NCBI GenBank assembly: GCA_965216875.1
Contig: OZ244207.1
Coordinates: forward strand, 544,001-608,000
Direction of reading: 5' to 3'
Source: Rubripirellula sp.
Lineage (GTDB): Bacteria > Planctomycetota > Planctomycetia > Pirellulales > Pirellulaceae
Length of the DNA stretch: 64,000 nt
A program made the position numbers and the translations under genes. Shown here piece after piece: positions 47,568 to 64,000 of this stretch. The notes beneath the pieces are model-generated. The model had not been told where the DNA came from. It saw only the letters and a program-made list of their open reading frames with translations, and ran no database searches. Each line of letters opens with the position of its first letter. Within the stretch, counting starts at the first letter, position 1.

Positions 47568-47584
47568 ATGTTGATTGAACGGAG

Positions 47585-48163: not shown

Positions 48164-48211
48164 CGTCATTCTCCAAGGTTGGCATGAAGCAGCGTCACCG
48201 TGACGCGTGAG

Positions 48212-48259: not shown

Positions 48260-48262
48260 AAT

Positions 48263-48698
48263 GAAGTTTGAAGCGTGAAGTTCGAAGTTTGAAACGAAGT
48301 TCGGTAGATTGTTGGCATGAAAAGTGACTTGCCTGACCGGACATTTGCGTTTTCCGAGCGAATCGTGCGACTCTGTCTGGCACTGGAGGATGAAAGCGAT
48401 GTCGCTTCAACTCTGATGAGGCAATTGCTTCGGTCGGGTACATCTATCGGCGCGAATGTGGAGGAAGCTCAGGCAAGTGAAAGCAAGCGTGACTTCGTTC
48501 ACAAGTATTCGATTGCAGCTAAAGAGGCTCGCGAAACACATTACTGGCTGCGACTGCTAGCCAAGACCGAGGTCATTCCGCCATCTCGCCTTGAACCACT
48601 CACTGCTGAAGCCAACGAACTGGTCGCAATCCTGACGACAATCTGCAAGAAGAACCGGTGACAATCTTTCAAACTTCGAACTTCACCCTTCAAACATC
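48263..48698 (+). mobile_element. Heptamer inverted-repeat cassette carrying four-helix-bundle gene 1
   Basis: 32-bp IR 48263-48294 / 48667-48698 (30/32 match) around ORF 48317-48661. Confidence 0.6.
48317..48661 (+). CDS. Four-helix bundle protein (23S rRNA IVS protein/TIGR02436 family)
   Basis: DLPDRTFAF, QLLRSGTSIGANVEEA, SKRDFVHKYSIAAKEARETHYWLRLL. Confidence 0.92.
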   Translation: MKSDLPDRTFAFSERIVRLCLALEDESDVASTLMRQLLRSGTSIGANVEEAQASESKRDFVHKYSIAAKEARETHYWLRLLAKTEVIPPSRLEPLTAEANELVAILTTICKKNR

Positions 48699-48702
48699 CA
48701 AG

Positions 48703-48773
48703 CACGTCCCCAAGGATTTGAACCCTGACTTACTGGTTTGGAATCAGCAGTGCTACCGTTACACCAAGGACGC
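48703..48773 (-). tRNA. tRNA-Trp(CCA)
   Basis: GCGTCCT/GGGACGT-G, loop TTCCAAA, T-loop TTCAAAT. Confidence 0.8.
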
Positions 48774-48981
48774 GGGTAAAGTTTGAATTGAGAAGGGTGA
48801 AGTTAGAAGGCGAAGTATCTTCCGCTCATTTCACACTTCAAAATTCCTACGTCGAACTTCCAAGCGCCTCCCGTGTGGAAACGCTCCCAGAATAGGCTTT
48901 AGGTATTAGGTGATTAGACTCTAGGTAAAAGCTGCCTTCTTGCCTGCAGCCTAAACCGCTATGGTCTAAACACCTTCCAAG

Positions 48982-49026
48982 TGACGTGAGCGGGAATCGA
49001 ACCCGCGAACTCCTGGCTGAGAACCA
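48982..49026 (-). pseudogene. 3' half of tRNA-Glu(CUC)
   Basis: TGG TTCTCAG CCA, GCGGG TTCGATT CCCGC; 5' half replaced by a heptamer hairpin. Confidence 0.65.
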
Positions 49027-49131
49027 TAGTGAGACTTCAGGGATCAGGATTCAGACTTCAGAAGTGACCTATTGTCCGACCTGAAGCCTGAAGCCTGAAG
49101 CCTGAAGCCTGAAACCTGCAGCCTGAATCAG

Positions 49132-49203
49132 TACCGCATGGGAGTTTCGATCTCCCTCCTGCTGTTAGAAAGACAGCCGACCTAGCCAGTAGTCGAATGC
49201 GGC
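49132..49203 (-). tRNA. tRNA-Glu(UUC)
   Basis: GCCGCAT/ATGCGGT, GCTGT CTTTCTA ACAGC, atypical T-loop ATCGAAA. Confidence 0.75.
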
Positions 49204-49308
49204 GAAGAAAGGCTTTGGGCTCTAGACCATAGGAAAGACGATCAGGTTCGAGCTAGAGCCTAGAGCCTAGAGCCTAGAGCCTGAGGACTAAAGCCTGCGA
49301 AGCCGAAG

Positions 49309-49383
49309 CGCCGAGGACAGGAATCGAACCTGTGTTTGCCTGGTTCAGAGCCAGGTGCAACGACCAACAGTTGCCGCCTCGGT
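49309..49383 (-). tRNA. tRNA-Gln(CUG)
   Basis: CCGAGG/CCTCGG, CCTGG CTCTGAA CCAGG, ACAGG TTCGATT CCTGT. Confidence 0.8.
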
Positions 49384-49421
49384 GTACGGAAGTTTGAAGT
49401 CGGAAGTTCGAAGTTTGAAAG

Positions 49422-49493
49422 CACGGGTGGCAGGATTCGAACCTGCATACCACTGCTTCAAAGGCAGCTGGCTTACCGTTAGCCAACACCCGA
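49422..49493 (-). tRNA. tRNA-Gln(UUG)
   Basis: CGGGTG/CACCCG, loop CTTTGAA, GCAGG TTCGAAT CCTGC. Confidence 0.85.
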
Positions 49494-49548
49494 GTGTCTG
49501 CGTTGAACGTTTCAAACTTCTAGCTTCCCACTTCTAACTTCCGAAAGG

Positions 49549-49621
49549 CTCCGGCGGATGGGCTCGAACCATCAATCGTCTCCTTAACAGGGAGCCGCCC
49601 TACCGATTGGGCCACACCGGA
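49549..49621 (-). tRNA. tRNA-Asn(GUU)
   Basis: TCCGGTG/CGCCGGA-G, loop CTGTTAA. Confidence 0.87.
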
Positions 49622-49627
49622 GTATCA

Positions 49628-50048
49628 TCAGGCTTCAGGGATCAGGTTTCAGACTTCAGGATCTAGGGGCGAAGATGAGAGACTACAGAAAACTGCGTGC
49701 GTTCGAATTGGCGGATCAGCTTGCAATCGCTGTCTACAAGTGCACGTCATCTTTCCCGAAAGAGGAAATGTTCGGACTGACATCTCAACTTCGACGCGCC
49801 GCTGTCTCCGCACCATCCAACATCGTCGAAGGAAGTGCAAAGTCATCACAAGCTGACTATGTTCGATTCCTCGAAATCTCCTACGGCTCTGTTTGCGAGG
49901 TTGAATATCAGCTGTCACTCGCACAACGCCTGTCGTATCTCGATGAACAAACAGCAACGGAGGTGATCGGCGTCGCCAATGAAGCCGGACGAGTACTCAA
50001 CGGCCTTCTTCGCTCACTGAAGTCTGACTCCTGAAGCCTGAAGTCTGA
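49628..50048 (+). mobile_element. Heptamer inverted-repeat cassette carrying four-helix-bundle gene 2
   Basis: TCAGRCT-type IR 49628-49659 / 50017-50048 (27/32 match); right arm overlaps the gene's stop codon. Confidence 0.6.
49675..50034 (+). CDS. Four-helix bundle protein (23S rRNA IVS protein family)
   Basis: MRDYRKLRAF, FPKEEMFGLTSQLRRAAVSAPSNIVEG, FLEISYGSVCEVEYQL. Confidence 0.93.
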   Translation: MRDYRKLRAFELADQLAIAVYKCTSSFPKEEMFGLTSQLRRAAVSAPSNIVEGSAKSSQADYVRFLEISYGSVCEVEYQLSLAQRLSYLDEQTATEVIGVANEAGRVLNGLLRSLKSDS

Positions 50049-50051
50049 CCA

Positions 50052-50122
50052 AGCGCCCAGCGAGAATTGAACTCGCGTCTTCTGCATGGCAAGCAGATGG
50101 GTTACCACTACACCATGGGCGC
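50052..50122 (-). tRNA. tRNA-Gly(GCC)
   Basis: GCGCCCA/TGGGCGC-T, TCTGC TTGCCAT GCAGA. Confidence 0.88.
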
Positions 50123-50212
50123 AAAATGCATCACAACCAGATTGTCAAAGATCGGATCAGGCTTCAGGTCTCAGTCTTCAGACTTCAGTTTTCTTGCTGA
50201 AGTCTGACAAAG

Positions 50213-50283
50213 AGCACCGAGTCGGATTCGAACCGACGTCCCCTCGTTACGACGGAGGGATCTTCCCACTAGACGATCAGTGC
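50213..50283 (-). tRNA. tRNA-Thr(CGU)
   Basis: GCACTGA/TCGGTGC, loop GTCGTAA (31:39 mismatch), GTCGG TTCGAAT CCGAC. Confidence 0.72.
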
Positions 50284-50427
50284 TGGAGTCAGGTGTCAGG
50301 CTCCAGGCTCCAGGTTCCAGGTACTAGGCTTCAGGTTTGAGGTTTCTGTTCCTTGCTGAAGTCTGAAGTCTGAAGTCTGAAGTCTGAAGCCTGAAGCCTG
50401 AAGCCTGAAGCCTAAAGTCTGCCCAAG

Positions 50428-50500
50428 TGGGACCGGTGAGAATCGAACTCACATGAGTCGGTTTAAGAGACCGGTGCATTACCTTGTCTGCCACAATCCC
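50428..50500 (-). tRNA. tRNA-Lys(CUU)
   Basis: GGGATTG/CGGTCCC-A, loop CTCTTAA. Confidence 0.85.
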
Positions 50501-50531
50501 AAATTGTGTTTTTGTCGTTGATTCGTTTCAG

Positions 50532-50604
50532 TCGGCGTGGCGGGAATTGAACCCGCGACCGTCGCCTTATAAGGACGCCGCTCTCACCCCTGAGCTACAC
50601 GCCG
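50532..50604 (-). tRNA. tRNA-Ile(UAU)
   Basis: CGGCGTG/CACGCCG-A, canonical D arm, loop CTTATAA. Confidence 0.82.
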
Positions 50605-50616
50605 ATGTGTAGCAAG

Positions 50617-50637
50617 TGGGGCCGGAGAGATTCGAAC
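50617..50637 (-). pseudogene. Displaced 3' end of the split tRNA-Lys(UUU) (att junction)
   Basis: Minus strand GTTCGAATCTCTCCGGCCCCA completes the T-stem (GAGAG) and acceptor (GGGGTTG) of the 5' part at 62716-62773. Confidence 0.85.
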
Positions 50638-50676
50638 CTGTCTCGTTGCCAACGGAACTTCTCACTGACTCTGGAG

Positions 50677-50748
50677 TAGGATTGCAGGGACTCGAACCCC
50701 GACCCAACCGGTTAAAAGCCGGTGATGCTGCCGTAACACCTCAATCCC
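50677..50748 (-). tRNA. tRNA-Lys(UUU) carried by the element
   Basis: GGGATTG/CAATCCT-A, ACCGG CTTTTAA CCGGT, CGGGG TTCGAGT CCCTG. Confidence 0.85.
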
Positions 50749-50788
50749 AAATAAAAAACCCAGTGCCGTCGTGTGACACCGGGTTTTG
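50749..50788 (-). terminator. Intrinsic terminator-like hairpin immediately upstream of the element tRNA-Lys
   Basis: Minus strand AAAACCCGGTGTC-ACACGAC-GGCACTGGGTTTTTTATTT. Confidence 0.55.
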
Positions 50789-51086
50789 TTGTTTCCAGCA
50801 ACAAAACGCCAACGTCACCGACGAAGCGGATACCAATCCAATCCATTCGCACCGCAACTGCGGGCGAGCGAATCGCTATTCAGATTCTGTTGTGTCGATT
50901 GCATTGGTATTGACCGCTACTTCTCTCGGTTTAGTGATTTTCGTTTGTCGTCCAATCTCAGGCCGACGGAACAATAGACCAGCGAGCGAAAAGAAGGTTC
51001 GCGTCGCTGACAGGAATAGAGATGCTTGGGGCGATATGGTTATTTCACGGTTTTCTGAAAACCGGGCAAAGTCACTTGGTAGCTGC

Positions 51087-52061
51087 TCATTCAGCCTCAT
51101 CATTCGGATCGTAGTCCAGCGATTGGAGATTCATCCCTTCAAGCAATGGTCGCGGATACCAAGCAGCGATACCAAACGCGTTTCCGTCGGTGTCAAAGCA
51201 TCCAGGACCGCCTAGCTTGTAGCCTGACTCGAAGTCTGGGTCGGCTTCAAATCGGCTAAGTATCACCCCAAGAAAAAAAGGCATGTGGGGGACTTCCATG
51301 ATCCGAAGGTCGAATCGAAAACTAAACTCACCCTGAAACGGGAGTTCGCGTCGAAGGATGTAGTTGCCGTTTGTTGTCGTTGCCGACACCAACTCAGACA
51401 CGGGGAACATAAAGAATTCCAGATTGTATGCCGTTGACGTTGGCAACCCGGCATACAAGGGATGATGCCAGAGGTCACCGGGTCGAAACGTCTCAGCGTG
51501 TTTGCCTCCGCGTTCGACGAATTTATCAAGCCCTTGAAATATCAATCCGCAAAGCGGTCCAGAGGTGACGTTCACAGAAGTGGGGGCTTTCAGGCCAACA
51601 CCCCTTATTTGCTCAAGTTCCCGGTTGTACCCAGACACAATCGGTCGACCGGAACTCGAAAACTGAACAAAGCCGCCCATGTGAAGGCTTAGCTTGACCC
51701 GGTCGCTGACAGTAAAAGTGGCGGATTCGTGTAGCTTCTGTATCGACTGCTTCTGCGAATAGTCGTAGGGGATTCTTAGGACCAGTCCATCGGTTACCGG
51801 ATGATATGGGACAGACAAATGAAATCCGTCCCTCAAGAATCCGATACGCGCAATAAGCCGCTCACGACCGTCTTCGCCTTCAACGGCAACACGGTAGCCT
51901 TCCCCAATGTGCTTTCTCACTTTTCGAGAACTTTGACCGACCGCCTCTACAGCGCGGCGCAGGCGAGATTTGGATACTCCGATCGCACCCGCGTAATACT
52001 GCAAAAGCCAATCCTCATTGGGATCGATATTGTCTGGGATATCCGAAATGATCATGCGCAC
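51087..52061 (-). CDS. Hypothetical protein with N-terminal DUF3606-like domain
   Basis: IDPNEDWLLQYYAGAIGVSKSRLRRAVEAVG resembles DUF3606; the rest is unrecognised. Confidence 0.65.
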   Translation of the reverse strand: MRMIISDIPDNIDPNEDWLLQYYAGAIGVSKSRLRRAVEAVGQSSRKVRKHIGEGYRVAVEGEDGRERLIARIGFLRDGFHLSVPYHPVTDGLVLRIPYDYSQKQSIQKLHESATFTVSDRVKLSLHMGGFVQFSSSGRPIVSGYNRELEQIRGVGLKAPTSVNVTSGPLCGLIFQGLDKFVERGGKHAETFRPGDLWHHPLYAGLPTSTAYNLEFFMFPVSELVSATTTNGNYILRRELPFQGEFSFRFDLRIMEVPHMPFFLGVILSRFEADPDFESGYKLGGPGCFDTDGNAFGIAAWYPRPLLEGMNLQSLDYDPNDEAE

Positions 52062-52081
52062 GAACCAAATAACTCAGAGTA

Positions 52082-52672
52082 CTAGAGACCGACCATGCGA
52101 TTCCAGTCAGCAACATACATCTCGATCCGATGAAACTCACCAGGCAACAGCAGTCGGTTGTGAGCCATAAAGTTCCGGGCCTTTTCAAGCTCGTCAAATC
52201 GTTGCTTCAACCAATGCTGCGTCGGAATCAGGTCTGAGAAATCCTCCCAGTTGTTGAGGATGATGTCGGCAAGGTGTCCAAATTGCACGAATCCCAGAAC
52301 GTCACGCTTCTGGCCTTCGAGCCACGAGTTGGTGTTCGCGTCTTCCTGACGTGCTTCCGCAAACTCACGGATCTTCTTTGTCACCTTATTGTCCCACCAA
52401 TCATCTCCATACTGCTCTTGGAGGCGTTGCGTGATAAGGGATCGCACAGAATTCTCGAAGCAGTAGACCAAGGAATAGAGTCGTCCCATTTGTAACGCTT
52501 CATTGCGAAGGTCAATGCTAAAGGGATCCAGTGTTTCGTTGAGCAACGCGCGCTCGGATTCAGTCGTGTCGGCCCCAACACGGATGCCGGCAGATCGAAA
52601 GTGTTCCGCGTCCGCTTCGAACATCAGACCTCGAAACATCCAGTCCCTAACTTCCTTTCGTTCAATCTTCAA
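52082..52672 (-). CDS. Swt1-like HEPN domain protein (putative RNase)
   Basis: YCFENSVRSLI, YGDDWW, LEKARNFMAHN (Rx4H). Confidence 0.85.
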   Translation of the reverse strand: MKIERKEVRDWMFRGLMFEADAEHFRSAGIRVGADTTESERALLNETLDPFSIDLRNEALQMGRLYSLVYCFENSVRSLITQRLQEQYGDDWWDNKVTKKIREFAEARQEDANTNSWLEGQKRDVLGFVQFGHLADIILNNWEDFSDLIPTQHWLKQRFDELEKARNFMAHNRLLLPGEFHRIEMYVADWNRMVGL

Positions 52673-53297
52673 TTAAGTGCTCCTTCAGTGATTTAAAGAT
52701 GGCATTATAGACTTCGATATCTTTGGTAGGCGGAAGGTGTATTTCGATGTTGTATCGAAGTCCACCAAACGCCGGCATTTGAACTTGGCTTGTGTCCGCC
52801 TTTGCTTCCTTGTCTGGCGATTCCCCGCGGTCTTCAGTTCCTTGATTCTCATCACCCGTTGGTGCCCCATTTCGTCTTGCGGCATCAAGGTCTGCGAGGT
52901 CGAGCAAAGCAAAAAACGTTTTTGCTTGCTCTTTCGCGACCCTATCGGATGCGTTGTGAAATGACTTAAATTTTCCCTCAATCGAAGCGCGATCCGCTTC
53001 CGTAGGGTTCTCATTGACGTGGAACACCTCTTCGTACGCTTCGTGGAGTGCTTCTGCCATCACCTCACGTGATCGCGATTTGTCGCGGTAGTCATGGTAG
53101 CGCTGCGTTGGACTGCCATCGCCGGTCAAAAACCCGAGGTCCTTAAGCACAGGGATGATCCCCATGTCATTGCTGCTCTTGAAGCCAATCCCCTTGAGAT
53201 GTGCCTGGGAGAATTTCTCTGGCGCGGTACCCTCGATGATCTTTTGCATGATCGCGTGCAGGTTTTTGGTGCTGGTCATGTAGCGTGAAGTCAACAA
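52662..53297 (-). CDS. DUF5343-like protein
   Basis: PEKFSQAHLKGIGFKSSND, LGFLTGDGSPTQRY, C-terminal YNIEIHLPPTKDIEVYNAIFKSLKEHL; overlaps HEPN gene. Confidence 0.75.
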   Translation of the reverse strand: MLTSRYMTSTKNLHAIMQKIIEGTAPEKFSQAHLKGIGFKSSNDMGIIPVLKDLGFLTGDGSPTQRYHDYRDKSRSREVMAEALHEAYEEVFHVNENPTEADRASIEGKFKSFHNASDRVAKEQAKTFFALLDLADLDAARRNGAPTGDENQGTEDRGESPDKEAKADTSQVQMPAFGGLRYNIEIHLPPTKDIEVYNAIFKSLKEHLIED

Positions 53298-53576
53298 TTT
53301 GATCTCCCTTCTCGTTCTCGTGGTATGGAGGGATTGAATAACTATTCAGCGAGTACAGACCCAGTCTACATTTATCTGGTTCGCGCCCGCAATCGACCGC
53401 GTATGGCGGGAGATGGCCCGGATATCGACCACTCCCCGTCAATGGATTTAGAACGAGCGTCGATTCTAAATCGTCGGGTTAGGTAGCGGCGGCTGCCGTG
53501 ATGGATCGACGTTCGGCATTGGCTTTCTGCTGGGCGTCGATGCATCGGCCCATTCCCCAGCCGGAAAGCCATTCTG

Positions 53577-54953
53577 ATGATCGAAAACCCATTCTTGCGT
53601 GACATGGAATCCTATCTCTACACCGTAGGCTTTCCGCCGCCTGACTTCCTTGACTTCGCGGATGCGATGGTGCTGCCCAGAATCGACCTGCCTTTCAAGC
53701 AAGCCAGCAAGATCAAGGAAAAGCGATGGGAAGCGACCTGCTGCGCCCACAACCTGATCTACGCGGGGCTCGTCAATCGGACGGTTGCGGACTCCCGTGA
53801 TGGCAAAGGCAAATCACGAGCTCGCGTCTGGGACGCGATCATCAAGGCCGGATTCGCTGATAGATGTACTGGGAGCGAGCAATCCGGCAAAGTGACACGC
53901 TATTACCCTCGTGCCAAACTGCTGCGGCTTCGGAAGCAGTGGAAATTGGATTTGCTGATCGACCTTCAGCTAGAACGCAACACTGAACGTCCACACGATC
54001 CAACGAAGCAAGCGTTGGTCCTCCTGCATAGCAGCAAGGTCGATCCAGTCACAGGGCTGAAGTTGGACGAGTTGGATCAAAAGCAACCGCTGTCTTTTCA
54101 CGACTGGGCAAAGAACGAAGCCGGACCACGGGGGATGCAGAGCGGACTTGAGTACGTACAAGCGATGGAGGATCTGATCGAACGAATCAACCGATCCAAC
54201 CTGCGGCATTCCTGGCAGGCATTTCACGTCAATCCCATGAGCAGCAAGGAAACGGCATTTCAACCCAATTCATGTGTCAGACAGATTCACGTCGGTGAGA
54301 TGTTTCGGGGCACGCGACTCTACTCGTGGTCACTGCTGTCCGGCCAGAGCCTACCGAAAGAAGATCGCAAGCGAATGCTGATCGATGGCGAGCCGGTAGC
54401 CGAGTTTGACTATTCAGGTATGGCGACGCGGATGCTTTACCACCGAACACGTCTGAGAGGGCCCAAGGGCGACGTGTACAAGCCGGACGAATTGTTCCCA
54501 AGGTTTTACGCGTTCGAACCTAGCCCCGAAACGGCCGAGATCGTGCGTGAATTCGGGAAACGGGCCACGAACATCTGCTGGAACGTTTCCAGCCGAGCCA
54601 ATGCAAATTCGGCGATCAGCAAACTGATTACCGATCATCCCGATCGCGACCTGATCGAATCCGTTTTGAAATCGGAGGGGATGAAACGCACCGATGTCGT
54701 GACACGCATCCAAGCAGCCCATCCGAAACTGGCCGAGGATTTCTTTTCAGGAGTCGGAATCGAACTGATGACCGTTGACGGCAGCATTATGCTCCGCATT
54801 CTCGAAACGTTTGCCGACGCCGATAAGCCAGTGCTGGGCATTCACGATTCCATCGTGGTACGCGAATCAGACCGCAGGTTTGCCAGGCGAACGATGAAAG
54901 ACGCTTACCGCCGATTCATGCTTTTTGAGCCCGTGATCAAACGTGTCTATTAG
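53577..54953 (+). CDS. Stand-alone PolA-superfamily polymerase (TV-Pol-like)
   Basis: RLY...QSLPKEDRKRMLIDGEPVAEFDYS (motif A), LMTVDGSIM, VLGIHDSIVV (motif C); no exonuclease domains evident. Confidence 0.65.
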   Translation: MIENPFLRDMESYLYTVGFPPPDFLDFADAMVLPRIDLPFKQASKIKEKRWEATCCAHNLIYAGLVNRTVADSRDGKGKSRARVWDAIIKAGFADRCTGSEQSGKVTRYYPRAKLLRLRKQWKLDLLIDLQLERNTERPHDPTKQALVLLHSSKVDPVTGLKLDELDQKQPLSFHDWAKNEAGPRGMQSGLEYVQAMEDLIERINRSNLRHSWQAFHVNPMSSKETAFQPNSCVRQIHVGEMFRGTRLYSWSLLSGQSLPKEDRKRMLIDGEPVAEFDYSGMATRMLYHRTRLRGPKGDVYKPDELFPRFYAFEPSPETAEIVREFGKRATNICWNVSSRANANSAISKLITDHPDRDLIESVLKSEGMKRTDVVTRIQAAHPKLAEDFFSGVGIELMTVDGSIMLRILETFADADKPVLGIHDSIVVRESDRRFARRTMKDAYRRFMLFEPVIKRVY

Positions 54954-55472
54954 GGTCTTCGTAACTCGTTGCAAAAGCCCGAGTTACGAGTTTTTGGCGG
55001 GGTAATATAGGAATAGAAATCCCGAATAGAAAACCCAACCGCCCCCCGCCCCTCCCTCCGCCCTCCCCAAAGGAGGGCGGAAAGGGAGGAAGCGGAACGC
55101 GGAAACGGATGAATAAGAAACGAACCCAACGTTAGACGTGTTACGGTTGCACGGTAGACGTCATCAGCACGTGGCACGTCCTAGACGCTGTCGGAAGTCG
55201 TAGACCCAACGTCCTGCGTCGGTACGCCTTTTGGTGCCTTATTGGGCGTTCGTGCGTAAAAAAAGATGAACTTTTTTAAGTTGTGCCGCAGCAAGCGTTT
55301 GCGTCAACGCAATATGCGCAATTGACGCGTTTCTGAGCGCATCAACGTGTTTTTCTGGGCGCATAACTCAGGGTATCCAGCGATATAGATGTGCACGGGA
55401 TGATTCATCGTCGAATTGCCCATACACGAACTCGGATCGTGTAGAGCTCTACACGCTAAGACTGAGAGCATC

Positions 55473-56144
55473 ATGCCAAGGTATCGAACGCCCCATTGGA
55501 CCGACGGACGAATCGCGAAGCTGCATGGAAGTGCACTAACCAGACGGTTCGCCAATCTTGCCGAGGTCGCGAATAAGTACCACAGGATATGCGCTGAGAA
55601 TGAGCAGTCAGCTTTGGATTGCGCCAAAAAAGTAGGTGATGCTCTGACCGAGGCCAAGCGTCGGTGTGGTCATCGCAAGAAGTGGTCGAAGTGGCGCAGC
55701 GACAACTTCGCTGGATCAAAAGAGACTTCATGCCACTACATGCGAATCGCTCGTGAATGGAACAATCCCAAAATCCGCGAGGCGATGGCACGCGGTGAGA
55801 TCAAGAGTATCAACCAGTTTCTCGCGGTGCTTCGCAGAAAGGGAAATCCCAAATCGCAAACGACAGCGGAACAACGACACGTAATCAGGCTATTCACGAA
55901 ACTTGCCAAAGATCTGAACTGGGCCGACCAAAACCGTTTGGCAATGCATAGCACGGCCCAGGACGTAATGCCCAAATTGAGTGATTTTTTGCTAGAAGTA
56001 CTGAAGGGGTATCCAGTTCCACATCTGGTCGAGGTTTACCCAGGAGAGTACGAGATCAACTACTACGATGACGGCGATCAAGCTGAGGTGACCATGCCTC
56101 CTGGTATCAAACCACGCACCCAAAAAAGAGCCAAAAACCGGTAA
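55473..56144 (+). CDS. DUF3102-like phage/MGE DNA-binding protein
   Basis: ALDCAKKVGDALTEAKRRCGHRKKWSKW...SKETSCHYMRIA. Confidence 0.65.
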   Translation: MPRYRTPHWTDGRIAKLHGSALTRRFANLAEVANKYHRICAENEQSALDCAKKVGDALTEAKRRCGHRKKWSKWRSDNFAGSKETSCHYMRIAREWNNPKIREAMARGEIKSINQFLAVLRRKGNPKSQTTAEQRHVIRLFTKLAKDLNWADQNRLAMHSTAQDVMPKLSDFLLEVLKGYPVPHLVEVYPGEYEINYYDDGDQAEVTMPPGIKPRTQKRAKNR

Positions 56145-56208
56145 TGGCTAAGGCTACCTATCAGCCGGATTCCTTTTCCATGATTGGTCCTGTGTCTTGG
56201 AATGTGGA

Positions 56209-57279
56209 TCAGGAGTTCTGATAAACTGCACGGCCAACCTTCAGCACATCGCGGCGATAGTCGCGATCCCACCTTGAAAAGCGCTCCATAGTTCTTTCGT
56301 CTTGGTGTGCAGCGAGAACAAGAACAGCACACCAATGGTCGACATCACCCATCGCATGTTTATGTGAATCAGCGAACATCTCGAAAACTTCTTTTGCGCG
56401 AGGCACGGATTTTCTCAATACCGCGTCCAACTCGCCGAGGGTCGAGATTTCGGTTGCTTTGCACGCTGCAAGCAGATCTTCAGAGTCAGGCTGGGCTCTT
56501 GCCGCTTTGAGCTTACTCTTGGACACCGCGTCCATAACATCACGCACAATGCTCGCTTCTTCGCAGTACTGCTCGATCGAAATCGCGTTAATTTCAATCT
56601 TCAGTGTTTTGTCCGCCAACTGCTCGGACACTTCCTTAGCAAGTGATTCTTGCTGCGCCTTTAAGCTCGTAAACTCGTCGTCGGCTAACTCAAACAACCC
56701 TGCAAGTCTCATGAGACGTCGCCGAAACTTGGATGGAACGTCAGATTCGCGCTTGTATTGCAAATGATGGGAAATTGCCGCCCATGCGTGCTGAAGAACT
56801 GTCCTTACCTGAATTTCGCACACCAATCCCACGAACGCATCCCATTCTGGCAACTTCGCCCGAGCATCGTTGAGCGATACGACTAGGTGGACGGACAGAT
56901 ACCCAAACTGATCTGCATCCAATTCCGACGATTTATCAATGCTGCGTGCGTCATCAACCTCGAACTCGTTCCGCAGAATCTTGGTAACTTCATCTACGTC
57001 CTCTTGGTAGTACAGAATCACGCGAGCGCCTGCGAGGTCGGGCAACTCATCAAGCGGGTTCGTGTAGGATTTGCCGGGTCGCTGAATCTTTTCCGCAAAA
57101 CTCTCAATACTCTTTGCACGTGATTCAGTGGTGTGGTGCGGGATCGAGTGTTTCTTTATCAGTTGGAGAATCAGCAATTCGATGCGGCGAGCAAATTCTT
57201 GAATTCGAGGTTGCATCATGCCATAGTCGGCGACCAATTGATCATGATCCGTTGCATTTCTCCGGCGTTTTTTTCCCAT
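56209..57279 (-). CDS. RelA/SpoT-domain (small alarmone synthetase-like) protein
   Basis: SRAKSIESFAEK, DLAGARVI, GYLSVHLVV, EIQVRTVLQHAWAAISHHLQYK. Confidence 0.88.
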   Translation of the reverse strand: MGKKRRRNATDHDQLVADYGMMQPRIQEFARRIELLILQLIKKHSIPHHTTESRAKSIESFAEKIQRPGKSYTNPLDELPDLAGARVILYYQEDVDEVTKILRNEFEVDDARSIDKSSELDADQFGYLSVHLVVSLNDARAKLPEWDAFVGLVCEIQVRTVLQHAWAAISHHLQYKRESDVPSKFRRRLMRLAGLFELADDEFTSLKAQQESLAKEVSEQLADKTLKIEINAISIEQYCEEASIVRDVMDAVSKSKLKAARAQPDSEDLLAACKATEISTLGELDAVLRKSVPRAKEVFEMFADSHKHAMGDVDHWCAVLVLAAHQDERTMERFSRWDRDYRRDVLKVGRAVYQNS

Positions 57280-57698
57280 AGATCCTTTGCTCAACAAGAG
57301 ACTGCAGTTAGGCCCACGGCGGGGATACCAATACTTGTTCCGCTGATGGTCGTAATGTAACAGGGTGCGGCTATAGATGCGAAAGCGCTACGCTGGGGTA
57401 GGGATCGCAGTGGCTCAGTATCAGTATCCGGCAGCGGCACCGCATTCCGCACCGTGATTCACGGGGTCAGCGTCATCCGTGATCCGCTCACGACGATCTA
57501 TAGATGAAACTGGCCATCGGTTCGGAGCTGCGCTAGAAAACGGGTCCAGGTACGCGAGAGATATTCGCGGCCAACGGGAGCGACGCCTAACGCTTTGCCT
57601 TCCGTATTCGCCCGAAGCGTCGCATAGGAAATGCAAACGCCGTAGAGCGCGATTTAGAACGCCTACGCGACGTGTTCTCCAACGAAAGGAGCCAACCG

Positions 57699-58322
57699 AT
57701 GCCGAAACAGAAACCCGTTGCGATCTATGCCCGTGTCAGCTCGCAGAAGCAGGACACCGCCAGCCAGTTGCCGGACCTGAAACGCTGGGCCGATGCCCAA
57801 GACGCGGACGTGCTGTGGTTCGAGGACGAAGTTAGCGGCACGACGATGGACCGACCGCAATGGTCTGAGGTCGCCAAGCTGATTAGCGCTCGAAGGATCT
57901 CAGCCGTTGTTGTTTGGCGGTTGGATCGTCTTGGACGTAACGTCAGCGGGCTTTCCAGTTTGTTCGATGAGATGCGGGCCAAGGGCGTTGATCTGGTCAG
58001 CCTGAAAGACGGTCTGACGTTATCGACGCCAGCCGGACGATTGATGGCTAACGTCCTCGCCAGCGTTGCACAGTTTGAAACGGAGATCAGAGCCGAGCGC
58101 GTGTTGGCTGGTCAGGCGAAGGCGAAAGCGAACGGCAAGACGTGGGGCGGAAGCAAGCCAGGTGTGCGGAAGAAAGTAACGCAGGAACAGATCGATGCGA
58201 TTGAGATGCTGTACGACGAGGAGATGTCTACTGCCGCCATCGCACGAACGGTGAAGCTCGGACGAAACACCGTAGCCAGCGTTATTCGCGAGATTCGAGA
58301 AAACTCCCCTTTTCGTAAATGA
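57699..58322 (+). CDS. Small serine resolvase/invertase with C-terminal HTH
   Basis: IYARVSS, VWRLDRLGRN, TPAGRLMANVLASVAQFE. Confidence 0.92.
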   Translation: MPKQKPVAIYARVSSQKQDTASQLPDLKRWADAQDADVLWFEDEVSGTTMDRPQWSEVAKLISARRISAVVVWRLDRLGRNVSGLSSLFDEMRAKGVDLVSLKDGLTLSTPAGRLMANVLASVAQFETEIRAERVLAGQAKAKANGKTWGGSKPGVRKKVTQEQIDAIEMLYDEEMSTAAIARTVKLGRNTVASVIREIRENSPFRK

Positions 58323-58362
58323 ATGGTGGTTGGCGGCCTGATGCTTGTCATACGTTCCGCGT

Positions 58363-58737
58363 ATGACGAGAGCCAAGAGCCACCGAAACGAACTACCTTC
58401 CAAATACGAGCGGGGATTCCTGAAAGGACTGGACCGACGTACGCAAATCTACGCGCGGCTGACTGCGATACACGATGAAATCGTGGACGATCTGGGCGGC
58501 AAGGATGGGCTATCGCATACGAAGCTCGCATTGATCGAACGCTTCGTATTTCTTGAAGCCGTGATCCAGAAGATGGAACTGGACATGGCCAAGTCCAAGA
58601 CGCTCAATGGCGAGGAGCTTAATCGCTGGATCCAAGGCCTGAACTCAATGACGGGTCTGGCCAAAACGATCGGCTTGGAACGCCGCCAACGAGCGGTCAA
58701 CGTTCGCGACTACGCCAAGAAAAGGGCCGCGTCATGA
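58363..58737 (+). CDS. Putative terminase small subunit
   Basis: Small helical protein overlapping the TerL start (ATGA); call rests mainly on position. Confidence 0.5.
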   Translation: MTRAKSHRNELPSKYERGFLKGLDRRTQIYARLTAIHDEIVDDLGGKDGLSHTKLALIERFVFLEAVIQKMELDMAKSKTLNGEELNRWIQGLNSMTGLAKTIGLERRQRAVNVRDYAKKRAAS

Positions 58738-60137
58738 ATATCGTCCAAGCGATTAAGGATGAAAACCTGATCCAGCCTTTCTTGGGCGATGACTTGAGTT
58801 CTTGGCGTCCATGGGTATCGGCCCTCCGTGTGATGTATGGGTTGCCGTTGTCACGGTCCGATCGCATCCGAGCGAGGAAATGCACCGGACGCGATCCGGC
58901 AGGGATGCCGGCGGAGGGCTTTGATACTGCTCTTTTCCTGACCGGCAGACGTAGCGGCAAGTCGCGTATTGCATCGGTGATCGGTGCATACGAGGCGATC
59001 CTGGCGGGTCACGAGGATCGGCTGTCCAAGGGTGAACAAGGCGTCGTGGCGGTCTGCGCTCCAACGAAACACCAAGCCCAGATCGTGAAAAGCTATCTGC
59101 GTGCGGTGTTTGATTGCGGCTTCCTTCGCCACGAGGTGAGCAGCGATACCAGCGACGGGTTCAGCCTGAACAACGGCAACCGCATCACGATTCTCGCTGG
59201 CGACTGGCGAACGATTCGCGGGTTCACGTTGATCGCCGCCATCATCGATGAAGCTTGCTTTTTCGGATACGACGCAGAGTCAAAAGTCCGCAGTGATACG
59301 GAGCTCGTGCGGGCGATCAAACCGGCACTGGCAACGGTGGGCGGCAAGCTGATCTGTATCAGTAGCCCATACGCCAAGCAAGGCTATTGCTTCCAGCAGA
59401 CGAAGAAGCAGCACGGCAACGACAAAGGCAAAAACCTTGTCTGGTGGGCCCCATCGCAAACGATGAACCCCACGCTTCCGCAAAAGGCAATCGATGACGC
59501 CTTGGCGGAGGATTACGCAGCGGCACGTTCTGAGTATTTCGCCGAATTCCGTGATGACGTGGCCGCGTACATTTCCCGCGAAGTCGTGGAACGGTTGGTC
59601 GTGTCAGGTCGCACGCGACTATTGCCCAGACCAGATACGCGTTACTTCGCTTTCGCTGATATGAGCGGTGGGCGTGGTGACGCATCCGTGTTGGCGATTG
59701 CCCATCGCGAGGACGGCAAGATTGTCCTCGATTCCATCGTTGAATTCAAACCGCCATTTAACCCGATCGACGTGATTGAAACGTTCTGCGACGAGCTTCG
59801 GCGTTACCGATGCGGCAGGGTGATGGGCGACAACTACGCGGCTGAATTCGTCTGCCGGACCTTCAATGGTTTCGGCGTGCGCTACATCAAATGCGAGAAG
59901 CCCAAAAGCGTCCTGTACGCCGAGCTTCTGCCTCACTTATGCGCCGACGGTCTGAGTCTTCTGGATCACCCTCCGATACTAGATCAGATAGCCGGTTTAG
60001 AACGCCGTACACGAAGCGGAGGGCGTGACATTATCGACCACCGACCGGGAGCCCATGACGACGTTGCCAACGCGGTAGCGGGCGTGGTCGTGGCGGCCAC
60101 CAAACGCGGTCGCAAATTCGGAGCCATTTGCAATTAG
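58734..60137 (+). CDS. Terminase large subunit-like protein
   Basis: Walker A GRRSGKS, Walker B AIIDE, ISSP, nuclease DMSGGRGD and HDDVANA. Confidence 0.82.
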   Translation: MNIVQAIKDENLIQPFLGDDLSSWRPWVSALRVMYGLPLSRSDRIRARKCTGRDPAGMPAEGFDTALFLTGRRSGKSRIASVIGAYEAILAGHEDRLSKGEQGVVAVCAPTKHQAQIVKSYLRAVFDCGFLRHEVSSDTSDGFSLNNGNRITILAGDWRTIRGFTLIAAIIDEACFFGYDAESKVRSDTELVRAIKPALATVGGKLICISSPYAKQGYCFQQTKKQHGNDKGKNLVWWAPSQTMNPTLPQKAIDDALAEDYAAARSEYFAEFRDDVAAYISREVVERLVVSGRTRLLPRPDTRYFAFADMSGGRGDASVLAIAHREDGKIVLDSIVEFKPPFNPIDVIETFCDELRRYRCGRVMGDNYAAEFVCRTFNGFGVRYIKCEKPKSVLYAELLPHLCADGLSLLDHPPILDQIAGLERRTRSGGRDIIDHRPGAHDDVANAVAGVVVAATKRGRKFGAICN

Positions 60138-60146
60138 GAGCATGGA

Positions 60147-60659
60147 ATGAACGACAACGAGTTTCGCCGACAGAAGCTTGCCGATTACGAAGCGAGGCAC
60201 AGCAAGCCGGATCATCCGCCCCTGCTCGTCGGTGGCTGGGTGTATTACCCGGATGGAGCCGCACGTGAAAAGAATCCTTGGGCTGGTGCTTGGTGTGAGC
60301 CTGATCCTGATCCGCTAAGTCGAGCGAAAACGATTTTGTTCTATCACGAGAAGCGGTTGGAGTTCGCGGTTACGGAATTCCAGTATCTCAAGAGCAGCCT
60401 GAAAGCTCAGGCCAAGTCCGAATACCTGGGCCGTCCCTGTCCGCCGAATAGCCTGGTTCAACGCGAAGGCATGCGGAAGCTCAAAGACATGAAAAGCAGT
60501 ATCGAGGTCCTTCAACGGCGATTTGAAAAGGCCGAGCAGGAGCTGAAAGAGATCGAAGACAACCACCCATCGTCGAGACGGCATCAACAGCGACGTGATG
60601 CCGAACACCGACAGACTGCCGAGGAGTTCGTCGCTGAAATCAACGACATCGAGATTTGA
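60147..60659 (+). CDS. Hypothetical coiled-coil protein
   Basis: AGGAG upstream; follows TerL in an operon. Confidence 0.65.
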   Translation: MNDNEFRRQKLADYEARHSKPDHPPLLVGGWVYYPDGAAREKNPWAGAWCEPDPDPLSRAKTILFYHEKRLEFAVTEFQYLKSSLKAQAKSEYLGRPCPPNSLVQREGMRKLKDMKSSIEVLQRRFEKAEQELKEIEDNHPSSRRHQQRRDAEHRQTAEEFVAEINDIEI

Positions 60660-61092
60660 AAGGATCGATCCAATGACGTACGTACGCAACGTTAGACAAT
60701 CGCCGAAACCTTTGGAGCGCCCACCGGCTTTGTTTATTGATGAGACCATCTGTGGACCCCGTGCTTCAGGTCGGGAACTGTCTCGCCCATCGCTTCAGTC
60801 GGGACGGCAAGCGACCGGGAGTATCGGGATCGCCATGAATCAGCTTTCGCCTCCCGCGAGGCTTCCCAGTGCCCCGAGGTTTTTCAGTTAGATGCGATCA
60901 CGGCTGCGCATTCGGGGGTGTCCTCTGTGGTTCGTCTCATCTACCCGGAAGTGCCACGCCGCGAGGTGTGCGCTAGCGTAGCCGTAGGGCGGCAAGGTTG
61001 GAGCTTGATCACTCCGATCGGACCAACTAACTGCACGACGGTTGGTCAGCCGCCCTTTTCTCTCCCTGTGTCGTGCGAAAGGTCGTGCAACT

Positions 61093-62739
61093 ATGTCCAA
61101 GAAGCGCAAACGCCTTATCAAGGCTGTTGCTTACCTCCGTCGCTCTACCACAGACCAAGAGGCGAGCCTCGACGAGCAACGTGCAACCATCATCGCCTAC
61201 GCCAAAGCGAACGGATACAGAATCATCCGTTGGTACGAAGACGACGGCATAAGCGGCGATGATACGGAAAAGCGTGTCGGTTTCCTTCGCATGATCGACG
61301 ATGCCACGTCTGGCGAATTCAAATTCATTCTGTGCTGGGACCAGGATCGCTTTGGGCGGTTCGACAGTTTAGAAGCCGGTTACTACATCACACCAATCCG
61401 AAACGCCGGAGTTCAACTGGTAACGGTGAACGAAGGGCCGATTGACTGGAACAACTTTGCCGACCGTTTGACCTACAGCATCAAACAGGAAGGCAAACAC
61501 CAGTTCCTCCGCGACCTATCACGCAATGTCCTGCGAGGGCAAAGCGAGGCGGCGAAGCAAGGAAGTTGGATCGGAAGCCCGCCGTACGGTTATCTCCTAG
61601 AGGGCAACTGCAAGAACAAACGACTGGTCGTTGACGAGCCCAGAATGGCGATCGTGCGACGGTTGTTCAAAGAATACGTAGACGATGGACGTTCGCTTTC
61701 AGAGATTGCCAAACGCCTCACGGACGAAGGCGAGCCAACGCCTAAAGGTAAAAGGCAATGGCGTGGTGACACCGTGAGATTCCTTTTGGCGAATCCGGCC
61801 TACATCGGCACGTTCCGGTACAACACTGCCGGGAGCTCCAAGTACCACAGTTTCAGGCGTGGAGCAATTGCACAAGGCGGTTACCGAGGACGCAAGCCAG
61901 TAGAGGATTGGGTCGTGATTCCGAATCACCACCCAGCCGAGATCGACAAGGACGCCTTCGATCGTGCTCAAGCGATGATCGCAAAGAACCGAAACGGGCA
62001 GACCAATTATCCAGCAGGCGACAATCCGTACATCTTCAGCGGCGTGTTGCGTTGTGGTCGATGCGGTGCGTTGATGATTGGCGACGATGGGAACCGCTAT
62101 CGATGCGGCAATCGTCGAGCGAAGAAACGGTGTTTGGGAACGGTCGTGCGTGAGGACCATCTGCTGGAACATCTGACGCGTACGCTCAACAAGCATTTGA
62201 TCGACGATGATCCTGAAATGCTGGCCGCTGAATGGTCTGCCGATAGATGGGAACTGCGGCCAGAGGATGTCCCAAAGACGTTCGAGCGAATGCGTCGAAT
62301 CATGAAAGGAAACGACGGCAGGGATTTCGCGAGGGACGCGAAGCGACTGCGGGCCAAGATTGCAAAGATTGATACACAGCTCGCAAAGCTGCGTCGCAAC
62401 ATCGGGTACGTCGATGATCCGGCAACCATTACCGTCATCTCAGAGGAGATTGAGAAGCACGAAGAAGAACGCGGTACATTGCAGCGGCAGATCGAATCGC
62501 AGCCAACGGAGATCAACGTCAACTACGCGGTGCTGGACCTGATCGGGGACATGATGCACCTGCATTCCGGCAACAAGGCCGTAGTGCGTCGCGTGGTCCG
62601 AGAGGTCGATCGGATCACCGTTCACACGCATCGACGCGGAAAGGGGAATGGCACGCGACACCGCCTCAAGTCGATAGAAATCACGTGGCTAGGAGTGGGG
62701 CCGACTGCGAGTAAGTCGAACTCTCGCCGAACGGATTAA
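61093..62739 (+). CDS. Large serine recombinase (integrase)
   Basis: AYLRRST catalytic Ser, DRFGR, recombinase domain (PPYGY, NPAYIG), zinc ribbon CGRCG...C...C, coiled coil; C-terminus crosses the att core. Confidence 0.93.
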   Translation: MSKKRKRLIKAVAYLRRSTTDQEASLDEQRATIIAYAKANGYRIIRWYEDDGISGDDTEKRVGFLRMIDDATSGEFKFILCWDQDRFGRFDSLEAGYYITPIRNAGVQLVTVNEGPIDWNNFADRLTYSIKQEGKHQFLRDLSRNVLRGQSEAAKQGSWIGSPPYGYLLEGNCKNKRLVVDEPRMAIVRRLFKEYVDDGRSLSEIAKRLTDEGEPTPKGKRQWRGDTVRFLLANPAYIGTFRYNTAGSSKYHSFRRGAIAQGGYRGRKPVEDWVVIPNHHPAEIDKDAFDRAQAMIAKNRNGQTNYPAGDNPYIFSGVLRCGRCGALMIGDDGNRYRCGNRRAKKRCLGTVVREDHLLEHLTRTLNKHLIDDDPEMLAAEWSADRWELRPEDVPKTFERMRRIMKGNDGRDFARDAKRLRAKIAKIDTQLAKLRRNIGYVDDPATITVISEEIEKHEEERGTLQRQIESQPTEINVNYAVLDLIGDMMHLHSGNKAVVRRVVREVDRITVHTHRRGKGNGTRHRLKSIEITWLGVGPTASKSNSRRTD

Positions 62740-62953: not shown

Positions 62954-63064
62954 GTTTGTCAGGCGTCAGGAATCAGGCCTCCGACTTCAGGAGAACTTCC
63001 TGAATCCTGAATCCTGAATCCTGAATCCTGACGCCTGACGCCTGAAGTCTGACTCCTGCATTAG

Positions 63065-63137
63065 TCGGGTGTGTCGGAATCGAACCGCTCTCCATCGTCC
63101 CAAACGAAGTGTGCACAACCATTACACTTCACGCCCG
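63065..63137 (-). tRNA. tRNA-Pro(UGG), partly degenerate
   Basis: CGGG../..CCCG-A, loop TTTGGGA; mismatches in T and acceptor stems. Confidence 0.6.
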
Positions 63138-63186
63138 ATCGTCGACTTCTGACGCCTGATACCTGAAGCCTGAAGTCTGTATAAAT

Positions 63187-63822
63187 GAGTCGGCTTTAGC
63201 GCAAGCTCTATTCCGACTCGGTGATGGCCCTCGAATCAACGCCATTGGCTCCTCGAGGTCTGCACACGCGCGTGTTAAACGCTTCATCACCTTCACCCCT
63301 GTCGTTGATGTCTCCATCGCCCAACAGCAGGCAGTAGTGCAACGAGTCTTCTGGGTTAGGTCCCGAGCCTCCCGTCGGAGACTCGCACCTCGCTCGATCA
63401 GCTTTCTACGTCGGGACGTAGTCCACTGATCCCCTTTCGGGCAGCTCGACCACCTTTCGGCGACCGATGTAGGCACTTCGACTCTGTTACACGTATGACT
63501 TGCTGCCACCTCCCGAAGGAGTCGGCAACTTCCCGAACACTTTATGTGTCATTCAACCCTGACAAGGTTGCGACTGGAACGTTCCACGATAGCCATACAA
63601 ATCCGTGGTCTTTCAGGCAGCACTCCGCTGGTGGGCCAGCGACTCACGCCCTCAGTTACTTGACAGCTTCCAGTACCCACGCGGTTACCTACCGGCTTCA
63701 TCGCCAAGGCTACGACGGATGAACGCCGCTCCTAGGTCAGCCTTTCGTTTATCTCTCTTGCGAGAGCCGGCCACCCGTTCCAGGGCAAACCGGTTTTACG
63801 TCCGAACGACATCACGGACCTA
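63187..63822 (-). ncRNA. Large ornate structured ncRNA, possibly GOLLD-like
   Basis: No credible ORF; many minus-strand stems capped by GAAA, GCAA, GAGA and UUCG tetraloops; long-range closing helices. Confidence 0.7.
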
Positions 63823-63940
63823 TGATTTTAGAAGTGGGAAGCTAGAGGTATGAAAACCTCGCTCGCCCAACTTCAATTGTTCTGTCAATGCATTTTCCTG
63901 CTTTCAAACTTCACCCTTCACTCTTCGAACTTCCGAAAGG

Positions 63941-64000
63941 TGGGCCAGGAGGAACTCGAATCCCCGTCTGCGGTGCTTCAAACCGCCGCTAAACCATCTC
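63941..64000 (-). tRNA. tRNA-Phe(GAA), 5' end outside window
   Basis: GCGGT TTGAAGC ACCGC; 3' CTGGCCC-A. Confidence 0.75.

Follow-up and report, generated by a model that had tools for sequence, protein, structure and literature searches.

What is the ornately folding stretch that lies among the tRNA genes at one end of a 64,000-nucleotide (nt) window of a Rubripirellula sp. genome (contig OZ244207.1, positions 544,001 to 608,000), and does it belong to one of the large RNA families known from such surroundings? From the letters of this window (the whole stretch of DNA that was analysed), a first-pass annotation had marked positions 63187-63822 as a non-coding RNA embedded in a transfer RNA (tRNA) array, and had named a GOLLD-like variant and a new class of large RNA as its possible identities. 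Our analysis indicates that the marked stretch very probably encodes a true structured non-coding RNA, one whose family Rfam does not contain. The coordinates had been essentially right: the conserved core, ~632 nt long, occupies 63188..63819 on the minus strand, on which the elements of the RNA and the tRNA genes described below also lie.

The evidence that carries this conclusion comes from homologous copies. A profile search of loci collected by pattern scans and from genomes gave 60 full-length matches, 48 of which are distinct; these are 621-660 nt long and share 63-99% pairwise identity, with a median of 80%. In their alignments the boundaries of conservation are sharp, with the sequence GUCCGUG (63819) at the 5' limit of the unit and the 3' strand of a terminal hairpin (63188) at its 3' limit. 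The terminal hairpin has 6 bp and a conserved 19-nt loop, and is followed at 63181..63187 by a U-rich tail, which reads AUUUAUA in the window and contains U-runs in most homologues. The RNA is present once in the host genome, a single contig of 8,264,643 bp. The window copy is also predicted to fold more stably than shuffled versions of itself, with a minimum free energy of -263.9 kcal/mol against -236.05±7.34 for the shuffles (z = -3.79; none of the 20 shuffles was as low).

To obtain a consensus fold, RNAalifold was run twice on the 48-sequence alignment, covarying helices were searched for exhaustively, and the combined result was curated. The fold consists of 184 base pairs in 32 helices, and 97.3% of the alignment cells at these pairs are canonical. 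Compensatory changes on both sides are found at 106 of the 184 pairs, compared with 47.6±3.9 when the partners are shuffled (0/500 shuffles reach 106), although this control ignores relatedness, and the inclusion of clusters of close relatives among the 48 sequences means that cell counts overstate the number of independent events, a point that counts against the fold. Controls in which the partner is slid by 1-3 columns, and counts of pairs or pair types, are less touched by relatedness and are the safer measures; the slid partners give both-side changes at 25-38 pairs, again far fewer than the 106 observed. An independent RNAalifold analysis of 13 sequences yielded 166 pairs, 61 of them compensatory. 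The covariation in the homologue alignment speaks in favor of the RNA, standing above both the shuffled and the slid controls.

The RNA has a 5', a central and a 3' domain, and five of its helices are long-range, or pseudoknotted and crossing. The 5' domain is closed by a long-range helix (63576..63781) in which GGAAC (63781-63777) pairs with GUUCC (63580-63576); four of its five pairs are compensatory and 99.6% of the cells are paired, and the GGAAC strand itself sits in the loop of a hairpin at 63793-63767. Within this domain, pseudoknot PK1 (63704..63736) joins 63736-63733 to 63707-63704 with compensatory changes at all four pairs, crossing helix P4 (63727-63718 with 63702-63694), which is compensatory at 5/9 pairs. 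The kissing helix PK4 (63631..63680) connects the loops of two hairpins through GUGGGU (63680-63675) and GCCCAC (63636-63631), with 5/6 pairs compensatory. Pseudoknot PK2 (63493..63598) connects the 5' domain with the beginning of the central one: its strand GUAUGGCU (63598-63591), the loop of hairpin P7, pairs with AGUCAUAC (63500-63493), with compensatory changes at 4/8 pairs and 97.7% of the cells paired.

The central domain (63337..63492) is enclosed by a 12-bp helix (63492-63480 with 63348-63337) and comprises helices 17-24, including four hairpins, two of which are capped by GNRA loops. A further pseudoknot, PK3 (63411..63536), is a tentative candidate, in which UCGGGAA (63536-63530) would pair with the hairpin loop at 63417-63411. 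Its consensus, UCCGGGAA with UUCCCGGA, is near-invariant; three of the seven pairs do not vary at all, and a single pair is compensatory (C-G to U-A, in three related sequences including the window copy). The 3' domain (63188..63332) comprises helices 25-32 and contains the most invariant stretch of the molecule (GCCUGCUGUUGGGCG...) together with the terminal hairpin, whose conserved loop is GAUAGAGCUUGCGCUAAA. Several hairpins of the RNA carry GNRA caps, and unpaired runs of 15-30 nt show no variation among the 48 copies.

Eight of the nine helices that had been named by eye fall within the covariation-supported fold, namely CUCUC/GAGAG, CUCC/GGAG, CGCC/GGUG, GAUG/CAUC, GGUGAUG/CAUCACC, GAGUCUCC/GGAGGCUC, the invariant CCC/GGG and the terminal AGUCGG/CCGACU. 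The family does not conserve the ninth, a long-range pairing of UAGGUC with GACCUA (63817-63822 / 63733-63738): at three of the six pairs, canonical bases occur in just 6, 13 and 29 of the 48 sequences, and both strands are engaged in other, covarying helices. A pairing of GUCCGUG with CACGGAU, proposed by RNAalifold with RIBOSUM scoring, was dropped in preference to two local hairpins with compensatory changes.

The absence of a credible open reading frame (ORF), noted in the first annotation, holds across the family. Across the family, the longest open stretch per copy has a median of 159.5 codons (48 sequences) and in one case runs from end to end; the frame and strand of these stretches vary from copy to copy. 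No period-3 variability was detected in three ungapped blocks (shuffle fractions 0.66-0.98), and four local ORFs gave no match in Pfam.

Comparison with the 4227 families of Rfam 15 was likewise negative. At gathering thresholds, only tRNAs were found in the whole window. At E<=10 with lax filters over 62600-64000, the only matches inside the RNA were sR40 (16.4 bits) and gyrA RNA (15.4 bits), far below their respective cut-offs of 50 and 45, and at E<=5 nothing was found in the RNA region of ten diverse members, in a search that covered GOLLD, ROOL, OLE, RNase P, group I and II introns and small self-cleaving ribozymes. GOLLD (RF02032; threshold 150 bits) has no match in the whole genome at E<=10, and ROOL (RF03087; threshold 99.1 bits) has none in the window copy or the ten diverse members; the whole-genome ROOL search at E<=10 is also empty, but 14 control genomes are equally silent, so that this result says little alone. 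The canonical RNase P RNA of the host is intact elsewhere (G000:C1:2295064-2295534, 264.6 bits). An RNase P-like identity was rejected, since RF00010 does not match the region and the best nhmmer alignment to the host RNase P RNA spans 22 nt with E = 1.5. A group I or II intron was rejected as well: no intron family matches, and what borders the RNA on either side is spacer DNA that separates complete tRNA genes, not the exons of a split gene. The Rfam comparison called for at the outset thus leaves the RNA without a matching family. Of the two identities first considered, the new large RNA class is supported and the GOLLD-like variant is not, as there is no detectable membership in GOLLD or ROOL. 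Our search of open-access papers and bioRxiv found no description of this RNA.

The family is distributed patchily among relatives. BLAST against 61 related genomes found full-length copies in two, with 83% and 75% identity; neither of the two other genomes of the genus carries the RNA, and 2/36 genomes of the family do. Two short BLAST matches (24 and 29 nt, E ~0.003-0.005) were taken as chance. An order-wide search was positive in 12/401 genomes, each with one copy of 74-78% identity to that of the window, and wherever whole genomes were searched the copy number is one per carrier. When one genome per species was scanned for an exact pattern (185,579 species), 26 loci were recovered, 24 of which have records named as Planctomycetota or its subgroups, among them Pirellulaceae, Aeoliella, Bythopirellula, Roseiconus, Mariniblastus and Rhodopirellula; these labels bear out the first description of the RNA as a planctomycete one. 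The remaining two records are short contigs labelled as Gemmatimonad metagenome-assembled genomes (MAGs). An independent two-block pattern retrieved 29 metagenome loci. Yet the closest copies, with 92% and 91% identity, are found in unrelated MAGs.

A covariance model of the 3' 172 positions of the RNA (R1) was run over 151 genomes of the phylum and gave one strong match of 194.8 bits, in a genome (G435) of another order of the same class. Two weaker matches were set aside. One (G439, 24.6 bits) lies inside a 217-codon ORF that reads through a CxxxCxxC motif, and the other (G510, 23.2 bits) was treated as chance, with merely two short conserved strings in common. No match to the RNA was found in 50,697 phage GenBank records, nor in 2.9 million viral contigs by three pattern scans. 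As far as searched, the family is limited to Planctomycetota, mainly Pirellulales, with G435 adding a second order of the class.

The placement of the RNA in a tRNA array, recognized in the window from the start, is a rule of the family: a co-oriented tRNA lies within 250 nt in 39/48 loci. In 28/48 loci, the window included, tRNA-Phe(GAA) is found within 250 nt upstream, and in 28/48 a tRNA starts within 30 nt of the aligned 3' end. The order of the arrays is tRNA-Phe(GAA), the RNA, tRNA-Glu(UUC), Pro, Ile, Lys, Ile, Lys, Thr, Gly and so on, the usual 3' neighbor of the RNA being tRNA-Glu or tRNA-Pro. Among 11 homologous 20-kb loci, the RNA stands near the head of a long array in seven; the arrays comprise 35, 32, 23, 23, 14 and 9 tRNAs, the last of them at a contig end, and in the four largest (L019 with 35, L023 with 32, L020 and L021 with 23 each) the RNA is placed after the first tRNA. 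A long tRNA array is a series of ~20 or more tRNA genes that are co-oriented and closely spaced, with a patchy phylogenetic distribution (PMC8421152); these four arrays, with 23-35 tRNAs, fit the description, and the nine loci with no tRNA within 250 nt do not. No protein neighbor recurs among 56 flanking ORFs from 12 loci, which are as varied as SelO, a sulfatase, DUF1559, NAPRTase and a catalase-peroxidase, among others. Because no flanking family recurs between loci, the unit has no conserved protein partner in cis and behaves as an island.

In the window, ARAGORN identifies 16 tRNAs, all on the minus strand, and Rfam adds two. The tRNA-Phe(GAA) upstream of the RNA is cut by the window end (63939..64000; 55.5 bits), the whole gene being recovered at L002 7939-8012 by ARAGORN, and is separated from the RNA by a spacer (63820..63938). 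About 45 nt past the RNA tail lies a weak tRNA (63066..63136; 32.8 bits with the Rfam tRNA model), which was missed by ARAGORN and whose UGG (Pro) anticodon loop was read from the alignment. These two genes correspond to the co-oriented tRNA-Phe and tRNA-Pro that had been reported beside the RNA. Beyond them follow tRNA-Ile(GAT) (62881-62953) and tRNA-Lys(TTT) (62699-62772), both predicted by ARAGORN. In the metagenomic locus L075, the tRNA-Phe upstream of the RNA carries an insertion of ~20 nt in the D-arm region and was missed by ARAGORN.

Most array loci have in common a second conserved element, a terminator-like hairpin upstream of tRNA-Phe with the arrangement AAGGCCCGGUGUC, loop, GACACCGGGCC and a U-run. 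Its motif AAGGCYCGGTGTC occurs in 40/88 loci, 40-130 nt upstream of tRNA-Phe; in the window genome the hairpin lies at L002 8112-8145, i.e. genome position 608112-608145. The stem shows compensatory C-G to U-A changes, and Rfam has no match at this hairpin. The sequence TGAC[AG]C is found 25-35 nt ahead of the hairpin and is able to pair with its 5' arm. In 21/24 loci examined, many of which are close relatives, the TGA of this sequence terminates a short ORF of 31-71 codons, counted from the first ATG; the predicted leader peptides form a few related groups and have ...RL/RLL at the C-terminus in common. The short ORF and hairpin look like the layout of a translation-coupled, leader-peptide attenuator of the tRNA array. 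A ribosome that reaches the leader stop codon would mask the antiterminator and favor termination, while a stalled ribosome would let transcription continue through tRNA-Phe and the RNA to the rest of the array. We consider it probable that expression of the whole unit is conditional, because in most array loci the short ORF ends in a sequence able to pair with the terminator-like hairpin. Such an attenuator would fit the translational-stress induction of the long tRNA array of Anabaena.

With moderate confidence, we propose that the RNA is co-transcribed with the tRNAs, excised by tRNA processing, and active in trans in a role tied to tRNAs or translation. The RNA and the tRNAs would be made as one precursor transcript, because the next tRNA often begins 0-30 nt past the RNA tail and leaves no room for a promoter; since no conserved promoter precedes the RNA, a single precursor is also the simplest reading. 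Release of the RNA would fall to tRNA-processing enzymes, with RNase P cutting where the downstream tRNA begins and 3'-end processing of tRNA-Phe freeing the upstream side. Once released, it would act in trans as a folded RNA or an RNA-protein particle, in a role presumably linked to the supernumerary tRNAs or to translation. The persistence of the RNA at 9/48 loci that lack neighboring tRNAs points to action in trans and speaks against the role of a plain spacer. A trans-acting RNA produced along with supernumerary tRNAs is our best guess.

Several points weigh against this proposal. Everything said of the transcript, from its ends to its processing and abundance, is deduced from sequence. 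The nine loci of 48 with no tRNA within 250 nt show that the link with tRNAs is not obligatory, and there the RNA must have its own promoter. The search for a conserved promoter upstream of the RNA found none; in the spacer of the window, one promoter-like site is present (TTCATA, 18 nt, TAAAAT; 63854-63825), where 1.0±1.2 are expected by chance, and homologues do not retain it. Together with its U-tail, the terminal hairpin resembles a weak terminator and, if it acted as one, would speak against read-through into the downstream tRNAs. The short leader ORF could instead encode a small protein, and its gene would then carry a terminator of its own.

Some of the tRNA-free loci have ordinary chromosomal genes on both flanks and a full-length, well-conserved copy of the RNA, and one of the nine (L014) keeps a decayed tRNA-Phe (22.3 bits) and the upstream hairpin. 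Genomes with such stand-alone copies have clusters of tRNA matches elsewhere, matches that are not to be read as copy numbers. As for sequencing runs, six metatranscriptome runs contain 12-15% of the sampled sequence words and four 'organism A' runs contain all of them; these shares are no evidence of expression.

What the released RNA would do may be sketched further at lower confidence. By analogy with other large RNAs of tRNA arrays it may form a higher-order particle, and its architecture would suit a ribozyme equally. Taken jointly, a GOLLD- or ROOL-like assembly or a ribozyme is a possibility that we consider unlikely. Doubtful, in our opinion, is the complete scheme in which the RNA represents a third independent class of tRNA-array RNA, a self-assembling RNA-only particle or a new ribozyme, induced together with the spare tRNAs through the attenuator when translation falters and acting on the tRNA pool or the ribosome; it would, for example, shelter, sequester or repair tRNAs attacked by tRNA-targeting toxins. 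If this were true, planctomycete tRNA arrays would be a chromosomal, stress-induced translation-rescue module headed by an RNA machine.

Among the alternatives to a trans-acting, co-transcribed RNA, catalysis deserves the first consideration, improbable as we judge it. With a ribozyme that processes itself or acts on the tRNA precursors of the array, both the pseudoknotted core and the lack of variation at the junctions would make sense. The size and architecture do resemble those of large ribozymes, given the five long-range helices, the several GNRA tetraloops and the invariant stretches of 15-30 nt, and the RNA sits amid substrates of RNA processing; the near-invariant PK3 pairing of UCCGGGAA with UUCCCGGA is also reminiscent of the P4 helix of RNase P. 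No ribozyme family of Rfam matches the RNA, however. It is unlike the host RNase P RNA, which is itself intact, and it is flanked by tRNA spacers instead of the exons of a split gene; moreover, catalytic activity is not a property that can be read from a sequence.

The fixed slot of the RNA in the arrays could be explained differently, by a cis-acting part of the array precursor, a scaffold for folding, stability or processing, that becomes functionless once excised. The slot behind the leading tRNA, co-oriented with the array, in 39/48 loci and the closely abutting next tRNA in 28/48 speak for such a scaffold. A full-length, well-conserved copy is nevertheless retained in the 9/48 loci without a tRNA within 250 nt, and the conservation and structural complexity of the RNA far exceed those of known spacer elements; we regard this explanation as quite improbable.

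Very unlikely, in turn, is that the RNA is a highly divergent but true homologue of GOLLD or ROOL, overlooked because the Rfam models are too narrow and sharing the function and the nanocage of these RNAs. The niche is alike, in that all are large ornate RNAs of tRNA arrays, many pseudoknots are present, and the length of 621-660 nt is near that of the 659-nt ROOL solved by cryo-electron microscopy (cryo-EM) (PMC12286853). A GOLLD with embedded tRNA-Phe is described from Mycolicibacterium (PMC12990946), and tRNA-Phe directly precedes our RNA in 28/48 loci. Yet neither model finds a match at E<=10 in the window copy or at E<=5 in the ten diverse members, nor does GOLLD at E<=10 anywhere in the genome. 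A GOLLD-style 5' domain upstream of tRNA-Phe was looked for and rejected: the ~650-700 nt there comprise the short ORF, the terminator-like hairpin and poorly conserved sequence, with no structured domain. GOLLD and ROOL are typically RNAs of phages and prophages, whereas the present RNA was not found in the phage records searched or, with three patterns, in the viral contigs, and the flanks of 12 loci are ordinary chromosomal genes.

The chance that there is no RNA gene at all, and that the stretch is a decayed or unrecognised coding region or a GC-rich sequence folding by chance, is practically negligible, because the long stop-free stretches that high GC content does give, one of them spanning a whole copy, are inconsistent in frame and strand, free of period-3 signal and of Pfam matches, and because compensatory changes at 106/184 pairs stand well above both controls.

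In the window, the array that holds the RNA is interrupted. Between two tRNA-Lys(TTT) genes, a block of ~12 kb (50749..62698) separates the head of the array (Pro-like, Ile(GAT) and the Lys(UUU) at 62699-62772) from its distal part, where a second tRNA-Lys(UUU) at 50676-50748 is followed by the usual Ile(UAU), Lys(CUU), Thr, Gly and others; ARAGORN predicts 14 tRNA genes in this distal part (47000..50748). The block was delimited by its gene content and by the uninterrupted order of the array in other genomes. It encodes a large serine integrase (61042-62739) whose ORF runs into tRNA-Lys, a terminase large subunit (58734-60137), a small resolvase (57672-58322), a RelA/SpoT-domain protein (56209-57297), a Swt1-like HEPN protein (52082-52672) and a DUF5343 protein (52662-53297). 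The two tRNA-Lys copies have a mean column identity of 75% in the alignment. We read the block as a secondary insertion, an integrative element that seems to have entered the array at one of its tRNA genes; it resembles a small element of the integrative, satellite-like or defence type. The phage-like genes near the RNA are therefore incidental and not its home.

Other protein genes are scattered within and beyond the arrays. A 23S-rRNA-intervening-sequence protein (PF05635) is encoded inside the window array on the plus strand (48317-48661). Small protein genes occur on the minus strand within other arrays (L019 7400-8059, L023 7392-7895 and L025 7642-8148); homologous arrays contain a DUF4291 protein in one case and a Methyltransf_23-domain protein in two. 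Past the distal array end, a gene for an SPFH/Band-7 protein is found in the orientation of the array in two genomes, at 45746-46738 (minus strand) in the window and at L021 15245-16507 (plus strand), and the two proteins are just 29% identical.

The tRNAs and spacers of the window array are themselves unusual. Many array tRNAs (62699-62772, 63066-63136 and several in 47000-50748) score low on the tRNA model, at 24.8-45 bits where ~55-80 is typical, which is consistent with supernumerary, drifting tRNA copies. The spacers of this genome contain odd short repeats, at 62956-63042, 63140-63185, 62830-62875 and 63885-63935. One type consists of AGGATTC/AGGCGTC heptads, and the AGGATTC-type repeats at 62956..63042, between two tRNAs on the minus strand, form a long imperfect hairpin, recognized from the sequence and outlined by chance alignments to microRNA models. 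The other type is a GAAGAGTGAAG...GTTTGAAAG motif after tRNA-Phe and after tRNA-Ile. In most other arrays, tRNA-Phe is followed by a small GCGCAC-CCGG-TGCGCGC hairpin, which these repeats replace.

How, then, does the RNA compare with known systems? Among the most elaborate bacterial RNAs are GOLLD and ROOL, whose function is not known. Both are located in tRNA arrays and form RNA-only cages (PMC12286853, PMC12990946). Like GOLLD, the present RNA is large, non-coding, rich in pseudoknots and set inside tRNA arrays, and the link to tRNA-Phe, which here directly precedes the RNA, has a parallel in some Mycolicibacterium arrays (PMC12990946). It is shorter, however, at ~635 nt, as many GOLLD members exceed 800 nt (PMC12286853). 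Its conservation is even along the length, whereas GOLLD combines a variable 5' domain with a conserved 3' one, in some cases separated by a tRNA; and the present RNA occupies chromosomal islands of Planctomycetota and was not found in the phage records and viral contigs searched. With ROOL it shares a similar length (PMC12286853), multiple pseudoknots, no known protein partner, and a frequent location near tRNA islands; it differs in having no ROOL model match, in its planctomycete hosts, and in that no phage context was found. In short, the RNA resembles both GOLLD and ROOL as regards niche, size class and complexity, but it fails to match their models and differs in phylum, in showing no phage association in the searches made, and in the evenness of its conservation.

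Two other large RNAs invite comparison. Type A RNase P RNA (RF00010) is likewise large, with long-range helices and GNRA loops, and is functionally tied to tRNA precursors, but it has neither a model match nor sequence similarity to the region, and the canonical gene lies elsewhere. OLE RNA works with dedicated proteins that are encoded nearby, whereas no conserved protein neighbor emerged from the 56 ORFs flanking our 12 loci. It is alike in being ~600 nt long, ornate and highly conserved (PMC9723947, PMC12054373), but OLE belongs to a different phylum, the Bacillota, and gives no Rfam match to the RNA.

Long tRNA arrays (L-arrays) occur in Planctomycetes among other phyla and are spread horizontally (PMC8421152, PMC4758250), and the loci homologous to ours are textbook examples, with 23-35 co-oriented tRNAs and a patchy occurrence among relatives. 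The terms 'ncRNA' and 'unknown RNA' are absent from PMC8421152, as are 'ncRNA' and 'non-coding' from PMC4758250. The Anabaena array is induced by translational stress and regulated via promoter repeats (PMC8421152), in contrast to the candidate leader-ORF attenuator found here. That attenuator would offer a handle on the timing of RNA production, one that ties the planctomycete arrays to the stress induction seen in Anabaena, the single functional result for arrays of this kind. Being compact (~635 nt) and very well conserved, the RNA is a good target for cryo-EM, and its carriers include cultured strains, judging by record titles (Roseiconus nitratireducens JC645 and Aeoliella straminimaris ICT_H6.2), so that genetics and Northern blots are possible. 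A third unrelated ornate RNA in the same niche as GOLLD and ROOL, in the chromosomal arrays of another phylum, suggests that a large RNA beside extra tRNAs is a recurrent solution.

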